Shown here: piece by piece, positions 2,751-25,974 of the stretch
How the letters are laid out: the number at the start of each line of letters is the position of its first letter
Position numbering within the stretch: position 1 is the first letter of the stretch
Source: Escherichia coli
GTDB lineage: Bacteria > Pseudomonadota > Gammaproteobacteria > Enterobacterales > Enterobacteriaceae
Length of the DNA stretch: 64,000 nucleotides
Assembly: GCF_003334335.1 (NCBI RefSeq)
Contig: NZ_QOWQ01000020.1
Direction: 5' to 3' (one strand)
Notes under the pieces: model-generated
Told to the model about the DNA's origin: nothing
Databases searched by the model: none
Seen by the model: the letters and a program-made list of their open reading frames with translations, nothing else
Position numbers and translations under genes: made by a program

Positions 2751-4081
2751 CACGCCAGTTTCAGATCCCGGGTCATGTTTTCCACGTTGTTTTCGTGGAT
2801 CACCACGTTGTCTTCGATACGAATGCCGCCGAACGGTTTCAGTGCTTCAATTTTCTGCCAGTTGAAGTGCTTGCTGAACTGCCCTTCACGCCACGGTGCC
2901 AGTAGCGATTCGATGAAGTAGATACCCGGTTCGATGGTTAACACCATGCCCGGCTGGAGAATACGGGTGCAGCGCAGGTACGGATATTTTGCCGGTGCCG
3001 CGAGGTGCGTACCGCTATCATCCTGCATAAAACCAGCGACGTCATGCACCTGCAGGCCCAGCGGATGGCCGATACCATGCGGCATAAACGGCCCGGTAAG
3101 ATCGTTTTCGACCATCGCTTCTTCACTCATATCGGTGATGATTTGATGTTTACGCAGCAGTTTGGCGATGCGCTGATGGAACTGGATGTGGTAATCCACA
3201 TAGCTGACGCCTGCTTTCATGGTGGCGATCAGCGCCAGTTGTTCATCATTAACGTCCTTCACCAGCTGCGCGTAGTCGTTGTCACTTTTTGCCGACCAGG
3301 TACGGGTCAGGTCAGCCGCATAGCCGTTATATTCTGCCCCGGCATCCAGCAGGAAGCTGCGCATCTCTTCCGGTGCCTGATGGTCCAGTTTGGTGTAATG
3401 CAGTACCGCAGCGTGTTCGTTAAGCGCCACAATGTTGCTGTAAGGTACGTCGGTATCACGATGACCGGTCGCGGTCAGATAGGCAATGTTGATATCGAAC
3501 TCGCTCATGCCAGAACGGAACGCTTCTTCTGCCGCGCGGTGACCGTTGACCGCCATTTTCTGCGCTTCACGCATACAGGCCAGTTCGTACTCAGTTTTGA
3601 AGGAGCGATAGTAATGCAGGTAGTCGATAACCCCTTTCGGGTTGATGTTGCTGGCCTCAATACCCAGTTGCAGCGCACGTTCCGGCACCGGACCGATATA
3701 ACCGATATTGCCGCGCGCAGCAGGCAGCAGGCTACCAATGCCATCGGCTTTCGGCAGCGCGATCACTTCCACATCTTCAGTCCAGAAAGAGGTCGGCAGC
3801 GGTTCGACGTTGTGCCAGTAATCAACCGGCAGATAGAACCACAGTTTCGGCTTGTTCACGCCATCCACCAGCAACCAGCAGTTTGGCACCTGAGTTACCG
3901 GCACCCACGCTTTGAATTGCGGGTTCACTTTAAACGGATAGGGATGATCGTCGAGAAAAACATTGAACAGCTCGCCGGAGTGAATAAGTAACGCATCCAG
4001 CTTGAAGCGCGCCAGCGCATCGCGAGTCCGTTCTTGTAAGGTAGCTATATGATTTTTATAGAGCGAGGCCAGTGATTCCAT
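2750..4081 (-). CDS. pepQ: Xaa-Pro dipeptidase (prolidase) PepQ
   Basis: 443-aa ORF, M24 metallopeptidase-like C-terminal half, recognised as PepQ; divergent from fadB. Confidence 0.9.
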
Positions 4082-19830: not shown

Positions 19831-22091
19831 TACCCCCGACGCAAGTTCTGCGCCGCCTGCACCATGTTCGCCAGTGCCGCGCGGGTTTCTGGCCAGCCGC
19901 GCGTTTTCAGGCCACAGTCCGGGTTGACCCACAGGCGCTCTGCCGGAATGCGTTTTGCCGCTTTCTTCAGCAAGGCTTCAATCCATTCCACGCTCGGTAC
20001 GTTTGGCGAGTGAATGTCATAGACGCCAGGACCGATTTCATTTGGATAATCAAACTCTTCAAACGACTCCAGCAACTCCATGTCGGAACGCGAGGTTTCG
20101 ATGGTGATGACGTCTGCGTCCAGCGCCGCAATCGAATCCATGATGTCGTTGAACTCGCAATAACACATGTGAGTGTGGATTTGTGTGTCATCTTTCGCCA
20201 CGGCGGCGTTGATACGGAAGGCCTCTACGCCCCACTGGAGATACGCATCCCAGTCGCTACGACGCAGCGGTAAACCTTCGCGCAGCGCCGGTTCGTCAAT
20301 CTGGATGATGCCAATTCCAGCGGCTTCCAGATCGGCCACTTCATCACGCAGCGCCAGCGCAATCTGTTTGGCGATGGTTTCACGGCTGACATCTTCACGC
20401 GGGAACGACCAGCAGAGTATGGTCACCGGCCCCGTCAGCATCCCTTTCACCGGTTTGTCGGTCAGCGATTGCGCATACTTCGCCCACTCCACGGTAATCG
20501 GTGCCGGGCGGCTAATGTCACCAATGACAATCGGTGGCTTCACGCAGCGGGAACCGTAGCTCTGTACCCAACCGTTTTGCGTAAAGACAAATCCGTCGAG
20601 GTGCTCGCCAAAGTATTCCACCATGTCATTACGCTCGGCCTCGCCATGTACCAGCACATCCAGTCCCAAACGTTCCTGCTCAACAATGGCCTGCTTGATA
20701 TGTTCCGCAATGCCCGTGCGGTAGTTGTTGGCGTCGAGATTGCCCTTTTTGAAATCCAGACGCAGGGTACGAATTTCCGTGGTTTGCGGGAAGGAACCAA
20801 TCGTGGTGGTCGGCCACGCTGGCAGTTTAAAACGCGCACGCTGGGCTTCAGCACGCACTTCATAGACATTCGCACGCTGGCTGTCCTGGGCGGTGATCGC
20901 CGCCAGACGCTTTTCTACCGCCGGATTATGTACGCGGGTAGAGTGACGACGTGCCTGAATCGGGGCGCTCCACTCTGCCAGAGCTGCCGTGTCACCACTG
21001 TTCAGCGCATCGCGCAGCAGTGCCAGTTCATGGCATTTTTGTAGGGCGAAGGCAAACCAGCTTTTCACTTCTGCATCAAGACGCGTTTCCACGCTCAGGT
21101 CGATGGGGCTGTGCAGCAACGAGCAGGAAGATGCCACCCACAAATCACGTTTGCCGACAATGTCCTTAATTTGCGCATATTTCTCGGTAAGATCGGCGCG
21201 CCAGACGTTACGACCATTGATCAGACCCGCAGACAGCAACCAGTCAGAAGGCAGGCGCTTGTGCAGTTCAGCAACGTCATCTTTACCATGTACGAGGTCA
21301 ACATGCAGACCCTGAACAGGCAGCGCAGTAATCGTGTCGAGATTTGGCGTTACGCCTTCAAAATAGGTGGTCAGCAGCAGTTTCACCTGTCCCTGGAGCG
21401 CGTCGTAAGCGGGTTTGTATGCGTCCAGCCACGCCTGTGGTAGTTCCAGTACCAGCGCGGGTTCATCAATCTGTACCCACTCGATGCCGCGTTTCGCCAG
21501 TTCTGCCAGCACTTGCTGATAAACCGGCAGAATGTCGTTCAGCAGGCTCAGGCGGTCAAATTGTTCACCTTTCACTTTCCCCAGCCACAGCCAGGTAACC
21601 GGCCCCAGCAGCACAGGTTTCACCTTGTGGCCCAGCGCCAGCGCCTCGTCCACTTCGTCCAGCAGCTGCGTCCAGGTCAGTTTGAACTGTTGGCCTTTAA
21701 CGAACTCCGGCACCATGTAGTGATAGTTGGTGTTAAACCATTTGGTCATTTCCGCTGCCGCCGCAGGTTCGCCAGTCGGCGCACGTCCACGACCAATACG
21801 GAACAGGGTGTCGATATCTACCGAACCATCTTTGTTCTGATGACGCGCCGGAACGTTACCCAGCAGCAGACTGGTGGTCAGTACATGATCGTACCAGGCA
21901 AAATCGCCCACCGGCAGCAGGTCGATACCCGCTTGCTTTTGTTGATCCCAGTGACGAGCACGCAATTCACGCCCTACCGCCAGCAGTTCTTCACGCGTGG
22001 AGTTCCCCGCCCAATAACTTTCTTGCGCTTTTTTCAGCTCGCGACGCAGGCCAACGCGAGGGAAACCGAGGGTGTGATTCAATATTGTCAT
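19830..22091 (-). CDS. metE: cobalamin-independent methionine synthase
   Basis: 753-aa ORF, N-terminus [29 protein letters not shown]. Confidence 0.93.
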
Positions 22092-22327
22092 TTTTTCTTC
22101 CTCTAATTATATGTAAATCCTATGGATTTTGAATTTAGGGAAGGCGGCAAGTTTATTCATCCCCGGGAGCTTACTGAAGTAAGTGACCGGGGTGGAGAAA
22201 CGCAGCCAACGCACCATAAATTTAAAAGACGAAGGATTTTAGCCGTCCAGATGTTTACACATCCATAATTGGCGGTTACTGTATATTCCTCAAGCGCAAA
22301 TTATTCATGCCGAAGTGAAGGACTTTC
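22092..22327. promoter_or_regulatory. metE-metR divergent promoter/operator region
   Basis: 236-bp divergent intergenic region; contains a near-consensus MetR-type site (TGAATAAACTTGC on the complement, about 22149-22161) and met-box-like octamers (AGATGTTT ACACATCC, about 22249-22264); motif calls are tentative. Confidence 0.5.
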
Positions 22328-23281
22328 ATGATCGAAGTAAAACACCTGAAAACGCTACAAGCGTTGCGGAACTGCGGCTCGCTCGCAGCCGCTGCGGCGA
22401 CGTTGCATCAGACGCAATCCGCCCTGTCTCACCAGTTTAGCGATCTGGAACAACGCCTTGGCTTCCGGCTATTTGTGCGTAAGAGCCAGCCGCTACGCTT
22501 TACACCGCAGGGAGAAATCCTGTTGCAACTGGCAAACCAGGTACTGCCGCAAATTAGCCAGGCCCTGCAAGCCTGCAATGAACCGCAGCAGACGCGTCTG
22601 CGCATTGCCATTGAGTGCCATAGCTGTATTCAGTGGCTGACACCCGCGTTAGAAAATTTCCATAAGAACTGGCCGCAGGTAGAGATGGATTTTAAATCGG
22701 GCGTGACATTTGACCCGCAGCCCGCCTTGCAACAGGGAGAGCTGGATCTGGTAATGACGTCCGATATTCTGCCGCGCAGTGGCCTGCATTATTCGCCGAT
22801 GTTCGACTATGAAGTGCGTCTGGTGTTAGCACCTGACCATCCACTGGCGGCGAAAACGCGAATTACACCGGAAGATCTCGCCAGCGAGACGCTATTAATT
22901 TATCCGGTGCAGCGTAGTCGACTGGATGTCTGGCGGCATTTTCTTCAGCCGGCAGGCGTCAGCCCGTCACTGAAAAGCGTCGATAACACCTTATTGTTGA
23001 TTCAGATGGTTGCCGCGCGGATGGGTATTGCCGCGCTACCGCATTGGGTAGTAGAGAGTTTTGAGCGCCAGGGTCTGGTGGTGACCAAAACCCTGGGCGA
23101 AGGCTTGTGGAGCCGACTGTACGCCGCCGTGCGCGATGGCGAGCAGCGTCAGCCAGTTACGGAAGCGTTTATTCGCTCAGCGCGCAATCACGCCTGCGAT
23201 CATCTGCCGTTTGTGAAGAGCGCGGAGCGACCCACTTACGATGCACCCACAGTGAGGCCAGGATCACCAGCGCGCCTGTAA
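22328..23281 (+). CDS. metR: LysR-family transcriptional activator MetR
   Basis: 317-aa ORF with N-terminal HTH ([36 protein letters not shown]). Confidence 0.92.
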
Positions 23282-24068
23282 TAAACGTTGGCCAGTGCGG
23301 CTGTTGGTGCCAGATAGCCAGGTTTACCAGCAGCCCTGCCGGAACGTGCATATTATTCATAATGCCCAGCGTTCCGGCGTCCACCTGCGTCGCGCCGTAG
23401 TTCCACATAAAGTAGCCAATCCCGGAAGCCACCACGCCAAGAAACACCAGAATGCCCCATTGCAGCGTGGTTTGCGGCATTTTCTGCGCATTTCCCAGCA
23501 AGAACCATGCAATCACTGCCACCAGAAACGCGCCAAGATAGAACCACGCAAAGGCGTTATGCTGTGGCATCGGGCGAGTTTCCATCAGGCGTTTGTAACC
23601 CACCATGCCAATGGCAAAAGTGATATTGGAGAGTTGCACCAGCAGCAAGCCAGTCCAGAAATGGTCGGTGACCTGATCATAGCGAATAATCCCGGCACCA
23701 ATCACCGCCAGCAAGGCGCTAAAGGCATAGCCCCAGCGCAGACGGCGCTTACTCATGATGTCATAAATCAGCGTGATGTAGAGCGGCGTCAGCACGGTGA
23801 ACAGCAGCAGCTCGGAAACCGTCAGGTAGAGATAAGCGCGGAAACTCAGCATATACATCACGCCAAGCTGCATCGCGCCCACCAGCATATACAGGCCGAC
23901 CGTTTTCAGGCTATTGCCACGGGTACGCAGAAACGGCAGAAAAACGAGTGCCGCCAGGCCAACGCGCACCAGCACCGCAAAATAGCTATCGACGTGCCCC
24001 GCAAGGTACTCGCCATAAAAGCTAAAGGAGAAGGCCCACAGAATCGTGGTGATGATAAGTAGCGCCAC
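23169..24068 (-). CDS. yigM: EamA/DMT-family inner membrane transporter YigM (biotin transporter BioP)
   Basis: 299-aa ten-TM ORF; its 3' end overlaps the metR 3' end by 113 nt on the opposite strand. Confidence 0.8.
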
Positions 24069-24143
24069 AATGGAAAACTCTTTGATTAACGGGTATCCAT
24101 TGTAGCGAAGTATCAGGTTGACAACTGACCAAATAAAGAACGA

Positions 24144-24944
24144 TTACGATAAATAGAGTTTACGCAGATAATGCGGCACCGCGTCGTCGGCATTAGTACC
24201 AATCACTTCCAGCTCGGGATGAAGGTCTTTCAGACGCTGGTGCGCACTGCCCATAATGCAGCCTTTCCCCGCCATCGACAGCATTTCGGCGTCGTTCATC
24301 CCGTCACCAAACGCAATACAATCCTTCAGGCTGTAGCCCAGTTTCTTCGCCACCGCTTCCAGCGCATGGCCTTTTGAAACGCCGCCCGCCATCACTTCCA
24401 GACAGGTTAAGGTAGAGAAACTGACGTTGACGCGATCGCCCCAACGAGCGTTAATCGCCAGCTCCAGCGGCAGCAGTTGTTCATGGGAATCGCAGGTGAA
24501 GAACACTTTGCTGACGCCTTCCGGCTCCAGTAATCCAGGCTCATACAGCGCATATTGGAACACCGCTTCTTTAAAAAAGCGCATCTCTTCCGGGCGATGG
24601 CGATTCATAAACCATTCGTCGTCGCGATAAACGTTAGTAATGATGTCCGGATTGTCGTTGACTACGCCAAACAGATCGCTGGCAATGTCGCGATCCAGGT
24701 TATGAGCAAAAATCAGATTACCATCCAGATCGTGAACGCGCGCACCATTGGAGGTAATCATGTAAGACTTAATCTCCAGATTATCGCGAATTTGCCCCAC
24801 ATCAACGTGGTGACGACCGGTCGCAAACACAAAGTTGATGCCGCGCGCGGTGAGCAGCTTCAGAGTTTCTTTGGCGTAAGGGGATAACGTATGGTCGGGA
24901 GAAAGTAACGTGCCATCTAAATCAGACGCAACAACCTGGTACAT
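24144..24944 (-). CDS. yigL: HAD-family sugar/pyridoxal phosphatase YigL
   Basis: 266 aa from MYQVVASDLDGTLL (HAD motif I DxDGT); track ORF carries a 42-codon extension. Confidence 0.85.
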   Translation of the reverse strand: MYQVVASDLDGTLLSPDHTLSPYAKETLKLLTARGINFVFATGRHHVDVGQIRDNLEIKSYMITSNGARVHDLDGNLIFAHNLDRDIASDLFGVVNDNPDIITNVYRDDEWFMNRHRPEEMRFFKEAVFQYALYEPGLLEPEGVSKVFFTCDSHEQLLPLELAINARWGDRVNVSFSTLTCLEVMAGGVSKGHALEAVAKKLGYSLKDCIAFGDGMNDAEMLSMAGKGCIMGSAHQRLKDLHPELEVIGTNADDAVPHYLRKLYLS

Positions 24945-24951
24945 AAGAAAT

Positions 24952-25974
24952 TTAAACCTCTGTAGAGCGGTTTCCGCTGGGTGAGTTATGCCTGTTGAAA
25001 AAATCAACGATGGCGTGGAGCGCGACTGAGCGCATTGCGTCCTTTTCAAAAAGGATCTCATGGTAAGCACCTTTAATTACCAACGGCCGTCCTCCTTCGA
25101 CAGGATGGCCCGCGGCGGTGCGGAGTTCACAAAAACGGTCATGCATGCGGTTATCCACCACGCGTTCCTCTTCAGCCTGCAAGAGAAGCGTTGGCGTGGC
25201 GTCATCACCCGCACCGGCTAACACCTGTTCGCCAGCCAGAATACTTTCGCGTACCCAATGGTAGGTCGGCCCACCGACGCGAATCGTTGGGTCATCAGCA
25301 TAGAAGCGTAAGTTACGTCGATATCGCTGTCTGCTGTGGGTCAGTACGTTGATAGCAAACGGCAACGCGCGCCAGCGCCCGGTGCCTATTGCATAGCCAT
25401 CACGGAAACGTGGATGCGCTTCGGCCCAGTTGAGGATCTGCCGTGCCATAAATGACGGCATACGAATCACGATCCCAAACATTGGCGCAGTTAGCGCAAT
25501 GGCGTCACATACACCTGGATGGCGTTGCAGAAATAATGTGGAGATCGCACCGCCCATCGAATGTGCCAGTATATAGCGTTTACGCCACGGACCGGGCTGA
25601 ACCTCCTGCTGCCAGAATGCCGCCAGATCATCAACATAATCATTAAAGCGATTAACATGCCCGAGATGCGGATCGGCTAACAGGCGACCGGAACGTCCCT
25701 GCCCGCGATGGTCGATGATTAAGACATCAAACCCCAAATGGAACAGGTCATAGGCCAGTTCCGCATATTTTACGTAGCTCTCAATACGCCCCGGGCAGAT
25801 GACTACCACCCGGTCATGGTGCTGTGCGCGAAAACGGACAAAGCGCACCGGAATGTCATCCACACCAGTAAACTCTGCTTCATCACGCTGACGCCAGAAA
25901 TCAGTCAGCGGTCCCATGGTAAAAGCAGCAAACGCGTTTTCTCTTGTTTCCCAGTCTTTTTGCTGCTGAAACAT
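24952..25974 (-). CDS. pldB: lysophospholipase L2
   Basis: 340-aa alpha/beta hydrolase ORF (GHSMGG nucleophile elbow). Confidence 0.88.
   Translation of the reverse strand: MFQQQKDWETRENAFAAFTMGPLTDFWRQRDEAEFTGVDDIPVRFVRFRAQHHDRVVVICPGRIESYVKYAELAYDLFHLGFDVLIIDHRGQGRSGRLLADPHLGHVNRFNDYVDDLAAFWQQEVQPGPWRKRYILAHSMGGAISTLFLQRHPGVCDAIALTAPMFGIVIRMPSFMARQILNWAEAHPRFRDGYAIGTGRWRALPFAINVLTHSRQRYRRNLRFYADDPTIRVGGPTYHWVRESILAGEQVLAGAGDDATPTLLLQAEEERVVDNRMHDRFCELRTAAGHPVEGGRPLVIKGAYHEILFEKDAMRSVALHAIVDFFNRHNSPSGNRSTEV

Follow-up and report, generated by a model that had tools for sequence, protein, structure and literature searches.

The overlap between the 3′ ends of bioP (yigM) and metR in E. coli K-12 has already been described by Cote et al. 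(2016, mBio; PMC5120140), who observed synthetic lethality with bioA, and sensitivity to a BioA inhibitor, in the Keio metR deletion. Their conclusion was that the Keio metR deletion disrupts yigM too and that BioP function is abolished (PMC5120140). The K-12 genes (RefSeq/EcoCyc; PMC5120140) are identical to the pair considered here, as are the 113 nt that they share, and genetics based on the Keio collection has already been confounded by this arrangement (PMC5120140). Any deletion or replacement of metR truncates bioP as well, and vice versa, which matters for strain engineering and for the interpretation of Tn-seq data. The Keio design keeps the last six codons and the stop of a gene, and the Keio metR deletion presumably takes out yigM codons ~270 to 299, and with them the conserved end of TM10. 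Since the TM10 end is removed as well, the loss of BioP function in that strain is expected and is uninformative on the 19-residue tail that follows TM10. A literature search for methionine auxotrophy in the Keio yigM deletion gave nothing usable.

Two wider classes of gene arrangement resemble this locus. Like other tail-to-tail pairs in bacteria, metR and bioP are convergent genes whose stops are formed from the antisense of the partner's codons. Most convergent overlaps, however, amount to only a few nucleotides, whereas metR and bioP share 113 nt, an overlap that has remained stable in several families of one order. The pair also resembles the convergent excludons (PMC12288877) in that its two genes have overlapping transcription. 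In typical excludons it is the 3′ UTRs that overlap, with terminators embedded in the neighbouring gene, whereas in bioP-metR the overlap is between coding sequences and no terminator is predicted.

The window analysed here is a stretch of 64,000 nt of E. coli DNA (contig NZ_QOWQ01000020.1 of assembly GCF_003334335.1). An earlier note on this DNA had pointed out a 113-nt convergent overlap of metR and yigM at 23169-23281, with both ORFs intact at 317 and 299 aa. The open reading frames, the raw sequence and the RefSeq annotation all bear out the overlap, and the two ORFs are indeed intact at those lengths, with family matches above the cut-offs. The features of the locus are as follows.

22328..23281, + strand: metR CDS; ATG start, 317 aa, stop TAA at 23279-23281 (from the ORF and the raw sequence).
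23169..24068, - strand: yigM = bioP CDS; GTG start, 299 aa, stop TAA at 23169-23171 (from the ORF and the raw sequence).
23169..23281, both strands: metR/yigM tail-to-tail overlap of 113 nt; MetR 281-317 plus stop and YigM 263-299 plus stop.
23169..23228, both strands: segment A, which evolves in the metR frame; conserved MetR 281-300, opposite the YigM tail 281-299 plus stop.
23229..23281, both strands: segment B, which evolves in the yigM frame; end of YigM TM10 (263-280), opposite the MetR tail 301-317 plus stop.
23169..23171, - strand: yigM stop TAA, opposite MetR F281 (TTT) and I282 (ATT); invariant in 77/77 species.
23279..23284, + strand: metR stop TAA (23279-23281) followed by a second in-frame TAA; opposite YigM F262-I263-T264.
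23213..23218, + strand: MetR V296-K297, the sole site in segment A at which metR can change synonymously (to GTY before an A-initial codon) with a premature yigM stop as the result.
23440 (approximate centre), - strand (bioP strand): published Rho-dependent termination region, MG1655 4011704 on the + strand; resolution hundreds of nt.

metR encodes the LysR-type activator of metE/metH, and the yigM product is a DMT/EamA-family biotin transporter, for which the RefSeq name is 'bioP: biotin transporter'. The two genes form a convergent overlapping protein-coding pair, with intact ORFs on opposite strands, common 3′ ends, and homologues and domains for both products. MetR matches NCBIfam NF011950 over its full length (residues 1-317; 741 bits, cut-off 382) and contains HTH_1 (5-63) and LysR_substrate (86-288) domains; YigM matches TIGR00950 over residues 11-273 (310 bits, cut-off 230) and contains two EamA domains (3-128 and 139-275), in keeping with the 10-TM fold. 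In the overlap, position 1 of the metR codons pairs with position 1 of the yigM codons, metR position 2 with yigM position 3, and metR position 3 with yigM position 2. Because of this phase, a synonymous third-position change in either gene is always a second-position change in its partner.

The RefSeq/PGAP annotations of E. coli EPI300, UPEC-774U and MG1655 carry the identical CDS pair with the identical 113-nt overlap (in MG1655, bioP at 4011076-4011975 on the + strand and metR at 4011863-4012816 on the - strand). The window is K-12-like, and the region matches several E. coli chromosomes at 100% identity. All 5,426 of the 5,426 complete genomes of the species carry it; among its 5,431 matches, one sits on a plasmid and not on a chromosome. 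In E. coli Z135-6 (NZ_CP159632.1) the metR-bioP query finds a match over just 39% of its length, split into two pieces whose annotation reads 'hypothetical protein | LysR family transcriptional regulator | bioP', and metR is apparently interrupted there.

To follow the overlap beyond E. coli we used a MetR-alignment scan with one genome per species, which gave 80 Enterobacterales loci including Enterobacteriaceae, Yersinia, Rahnella, Hafnia, Dickeya, Pectobacterium and Brenneria. yigM is convergent to metR in all 80 of these loci, and the overlap measures 95-116 nt in 77 of them. The span between the two gene starts is exactly 1741 nt in 76 of the 78 complete pairs, which means that neither gene has an indel. 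YigM is 299 aa long almost everywhere in the sample, and MetR is 311, 312, 317 or 318 aa long, these lengths differing only through substitutions that make or remove stops opposite yigM codons 263-270. The positions of the yigM and metR stops are conserved across 77 species. The earlier note had proposed the conservation of the two tails as a check: the overlap itself is retained in 77 of 80 species, but the MetR tail that it quoted is the variable part of the protein, and Serratia and the Erwiniaceae, described below, do without the overlap. The locus of the Enterobacterales bacterium AwEntero (BHES01000022.1) has a 1-nt deletion in the two-gene span, through which the metR frame becomes 373 aa and YigM 267 aa; this frame change is probably gene decay in a symbiont genome.

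To see which frame is under selection in each part of the shared DNA, we placed 77 sequences on a neighbour-joining tree and counted parsimony (Fitch) steps for each site; the species are not phylogenetically independent, and the counts below are corrected for codon bias as far as degeneracy class and no further.

metR outside the overlap: 2.95 / 1.04 / 15.8 steps at codon positions 1/2/3.
yigM outside the overlap: 4.3 / 1.7 / 17.0 steps at codon positions 1/2/3.
metR codons 281-300: 1.8 / 1.6 / 9.15 steps at codon positions 1/2/3.
yigM codons 263-280: 3.5 / 2.4 / 13.2 steps at codon positions 1/2/3.

The two tails behave differently from these segments, with most change at second codon positions in both the YigM tail 281-299 (9.6 steps) and the MetR tail 301-317 (12.9 steps). 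The hand-over of constraint between the two frames falls at 23228/23229, between MetR E300 and R301 and between YigM V280 and A281. The seemingly conserved residues R301, P302 and P307 of the MetR tail (CGA, CCC and CCC) are the antisense of YigM V280, W279 and W274, of which the two tryptophans (TGG) are invariant. Each tail thus appears, as an approximation, to be mostly an evolutionary passenger of the conserved C-terminal segment of its partner.

Independent evidence places the functional ends of the two proteins at the same hand-over point. Family homology stops near it on both sides, with LysR_substrate ending at residue 288 of MetR, and EamA at 275 and TIGR00950 at 273 of YigM, and the alignment of Neisseria MetR (PDB 4AB5) reaches E. 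coli MetR residue 296. Two distant YigM homologues whose genes do not adjoin metR end 1-17 aa past the equivalent of V280, and their tails are unrelated. In the AF2 model of YigM (pLDDT 89.6) the confidence falls from 88 to 61-66 past residue 280; the corresponding model of MetR, built from a 24-sequence alignment, has a mean pLDDT of 42 and is uninformative on disorder of the tail.

The tails nevertheless leave a footprint on the synonymous sites of the opposite gene. When stratified by codon degeneracy, third-position steps number 147 against 251 expected in metR 281-300, a 41% deficit (P<5e-5), and 117 against 160 expected in yigM 263-280 (P=0.017). The third positions of MetR F281 (TTT) and I282 (ATT) show 0 substitutions in 77 species, an invariance found in 0/228 comparable metR codons outside the overlap; on the other strand these two bases occupy the middle position of the yigM TAA stop and of the YigM E299 codon, respectively. 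Among the six loci without the overlap, I282 is ATC in four and GTG in one, and in lineages without the overlap R301 is CGC, CGT or CGG and F295 changes to TTC. Because the I282, R301 and F295 codons change where the overlap is lost, part of the synonymous constraint is tied to the overlap. F281 (at 23168-23173 together with I282) is TTT in the 77 overlapping species and also in all six loci without the overlap, where the yigM stop cannot explain it.

Codon choice on the yigM side points to the same kind of constraint. The rare codon ATA encodes YigM I269 in 38/77 species but accounts for 3.7% of Ile codons in the rest of the two genes, and of the 69 species with Val at position 268, 67 use GTG; the alternatives that are avoided at these two codons would terminate the metR frame at codon 312 or 313. 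At MetR V296-K297, GTY followed by A occurs in 1/26 species and GTY followed by C in 10/51, a difference in the expected direction from a sample too small to convince. Within the YigM tail itself, neither E299 nor the TAA stop varies, and Q286, R291, R293 and A296 are for the most part conserved. The 41% synonymous deficit in metR 281-300 together with the two invariant synonymous sites indicates that the YigM tail is not fully neutral, and weak selection probably holds both tails open and keeps a few residues of the YigM tail (E299, Q286, R291/R293).

Several lineages have shortened the tails or lost the overlap. In Pectobacterium fontis the GTC-AAG sequence at MetR V296-K297 creates a yigM stop, giving a YigM of 284 aa. 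YigM of 284-285 aa is found in two protein clusters, one of which is from Salmonella enterica serovar Gaminara. MetR is 311-312 aa long throughout the Pectobacteriaceae, Rahnella and Hafnia. In Serratia an insertion of ~107 nt lies exactly at the hand-over point and resolves the overlap, with metR then encoding 314-316 aa, yigM 286-287 aa, and a gap of 21-36 nt between the genes. In Pantoea and Erwinia a DUF1456 gene stands between metR and yigM, and MetR is 310 aa and YigM 286-289 aa long. The MetR tails that have become free in Serratia and the Erwiniaceae comprise 8-17 residues, are unalignable, and are of low complexity and rich in Pro/Ala/Gly/Ser. The Serratia metR tail resembles segment B of Yersinia and Rahnella over its first ~25 nt, at ~3.4 SD above shuffles, and its similarity to the yigM-side copy of the same genome is marginal (P=0.03); this is suggestive, but not proof, of the Serratia metR tail being a duplicate of segment B. 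In Serratia rubidaea yigM no longer adjoins metR and a convergent porin gene is found there instead, a rearrangement within Serratia.

GC-rich hairpins occur 3′ of the metR stop in these resolved loci. They are found in Serratia sp. PL17 (at about stop +10) and in S. ficaria (locus L087, 3452-3487), where the hairpin is GGGCCGCC-tgcgcttg-GGCGGCCC, and directly 3′ of the metR stop in both Pantoea and Erwinia, the Erwinia hairpin being GGCGG...CCGCC followed by CCTTTTCT. A simple scan of one region, positions 3300-3700 of the S. ficaria locus, called no terminator. Judged from these natural truncations and resolved lineages, the tails and the overlap are dispensable. Serratia belongs to the Yersiniaceae, and the Erwiniaceae are close to the Enterobacteriaceae. 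Given this phylogeny and the distribution of the overlap, the overlap is most simply ancestral and resolved at least twice, a reading that follows from distribution rather than from a dated tree. The lineages with a resolved overlap reveal which parts are dispensable.

A search of 22000-24400 found 0 terminator-like sites, and a bidirectional intrinsic terminator, with a GC hairpin and A/T tracts at the junction, is not found in the E. coli locus. RNA folding across the overlap gave a z-score of -1.6 on both strands, which is no notable structure, an inverted-repeat search over the overlap returned weak or short pairs only, and an Rfam scan of 21900-24500 found no family in the overlap. In the metE-metR intergenic region (22113-22287, + strand), sub-threshold Rfam matches to Ysr49 (27.7 bits, gathering 95) and V_AS5 (26.7 bits, gathering 96), with E ~0.01, are most likely chance matches in a divergent promoter region. 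Since each mRNA must contain its own stop, the metR and bioP mRNAs should share at least 113 complementary nt. In agreement with this, Table 1 of the ExcludonFinder paper (NAR 2025; PMC12288877) includes bioP-metR among 165 convergent pairs whose transcription overlaps in at least 50% of MG1655 transcriptomes.

The published maps of 3′ ends bear on the bioP strand. Supplementary file 2 of Adams et al. (2021; PMC7815308) contains a Rho termination region on the bioP strand with a best coordinate of 4011704, which corresponds to ~23440 of the window by way of the MG1655 annotation. The reads in the 800 nt upstream and downstream number 98/21 without bicyclomycin and 300/326 with it, for a Rho score of 5.07 (p 1.3e-12) (PMC7815308). 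Rho thus restricts antisense transcription into metR. The earlier note had looked to Term-seq 3′ ends for both genes; the published data give the Rho region as the only entry for yigM and contain no entry for metR (PMC7815308). The p19 dsRNA supplement (PMC7373196), from a method of low sensitivity for weakly expressed genes, has no entry for metR, yigM or bioP, and the SMRT-Cappable-seq supplement has none for metR or yigM; low expression possibly accounts for the absence from both.

Taken together, the observed layout of the locus, its conservation, the way constraint is divided between the frames and the natural resolutions are likely to reflect a tolerated, ancient coding overlap with partitioned constraint and not a special device. 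According to this explanation, the functional C-terminal ends of MetR and YigM would abut without a spacer, and each frame would run on in the antisense of its partner to the first stop, adding 19 residues to BioP/YigM (281-299) and 17 to MetR (301-317). The sequences of the tails would be dictated by purifying selection on the conserved segment of the partner, with the sharp hand-over at 23228/23229. An insertion at that point (Serratia) or an extra gene (Erwiniaceae) would have abolished the overlap, leaving a variable Pro/Ala-rich MetR tail in place and reducing YigM to 286-289 aa. There would be no room for an intrinsic terminator, and transcription of the bioP strand would be ended by Rho. 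In the antisense, the yigM frame meets a stop every ~35 codons on its way through metR, and the metR frame one every ~17 codons on its way through yigM. At these frequencies, run-ons of 19 and 17 codons are unremarkable and close to what chance would give if the ends abut, and so the length of the overlap needs no special explanation. The overlap would persist because an indel or a shift of a stop would damage one conserved end, and not because the overlap is needed. The overlap is therefore real and explained, besides being already annotated and published; what the present analysis adds to the known overlap is the partition of the frames and the resolution in Serratia and the Erwiniaceae.

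Other explanations of the same DNA have to be weighed against a tolerated overlap. Long convergent overlaps are often mis-annotations, and a sequencing error or a mis-called stop could have lengthened one ORF; in the early literature Salmonella MetR was reportedly given as 276 aa. However, the chance that the overlap at this locus is such an artefact is practically nil, since 5,424 E. coli genomes and 77 species have the identical stops, which refutes it, and Salmonella MetR is 317 aa long in current data. The frames of the conserved domains fix both 3′ ends, so no alternative stop can be chosen. For the same reason we rejected the suggestion of the earlier note that one of the tails is not really translated: neither frame offers an earlier stop, the stops are conserved in 77 species, and the footprints on synonymous sites would be hard to understand if one tail were silent. 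On the absence of an earlier stop and on those footprints, both tails are probably translated. It is a further step to suppose that both tails are functional and that the overlap is a true dual-coding region, for example with BioP stabilised by a charged cytoplasmic tail and MetR carrying a Pro-rich one. The lowered synonymous rates on both sides, the invariance of YigM E299 and its TAA together with the conservation of Q286, R291, R293 and A296, the avoidance of stop-creating codons, with the rare ATA at I269 holding the MetR frame open, and the retention of a MetR tail of 8-17 residues even without the overlap are all consistent with such a function. Against it, substitutions fall mostly at the second codon positions of the tails, which is the reverse of what is seen in a selected protein, natural lineages have truncated or replaced the tails, the free MetR tails of Serratia and the Erwiniaceae are unalignable low-complexity P/A/G/S sequence, and distant YigM homologues lack the tail. 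We therefore regard functional tails as quite unlikely.

A regulatory explanation would make the pair a selected convergent excludon, in which transcription of metR, de-repressed at low SAM, and transcription of bioP interfere with each other and couple methionine/SAM status to biotin uptake, either through collision of RNA polymerases or through RNase III cleavage of an RNA duplex of at least 113 bp. Biotin synthesis consumes SAM (BioB, BioA, BioC), and a physiological link is conceivable. The conservation of the overlap over several Enterobacterales families, the lack of a terminator between or within metR and bioP, and the place of bioP-metR among the 165 convergent excludons defined by RNA-seq coverage (PMC12288877) would also fit. 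However, conservation is fully explained by coding constraint on two strands that tolerates no indel, the overlap has been lost at least twice while neither gene was lost, and the predicted direction, in which low SAM gives more metR and hence less bioP, goes against physiological sense. The pair is missing from the p19 dsRNA-capture supplement (PMC7373196), Rho already cuts read-through on the bioP strand ~5-fold (PMC7815308), and the listing in PMC12288877 reflects a coverage criterion and not a functional test. We consider a selected excludon unlikely, and it is very unlikely that the overlap is kept as a reciprocal switch between MetR synthesis (methionine/SAM) and biotin uptake by head-on transcription or an RNA duplex; if true, such a switch would be an excludon made of coding sequence instead of UTRs and conserved across the Enterobacterales. 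The earlier note had proposed that convergent transcription runs through both coding sequences with scope for antisense interference. The read-through is well founded, given the stop that each mRNA must contain, the lack of a terminator and the listing in PMC12288877, but a role in interference finds no backing in the p19 supplement, in the Rho-curtailed bioP strand or in Serratia and the Erwiniaceae, where the overlap is lost. A tolerated coding overlap, which remains our preferred explanation, would carry no dedicated regulatory role.

As an example of DNA shared between two proteins, the locus is a clean textbook case, with constraint handed over at a single point and with P302 and P307 of MetR as antisense shadows of conserved tryptophans; it raises no new biological question. 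Beside this pair, the longest ORF of yigL (24144-25070, - strand, 308 aa, GTG start) extends into the 3′ end of pldB (24952-25974). yigL measures 801 nt (266 aa) according to RefSeq, and the longer ORF is a mechanical maximum only.
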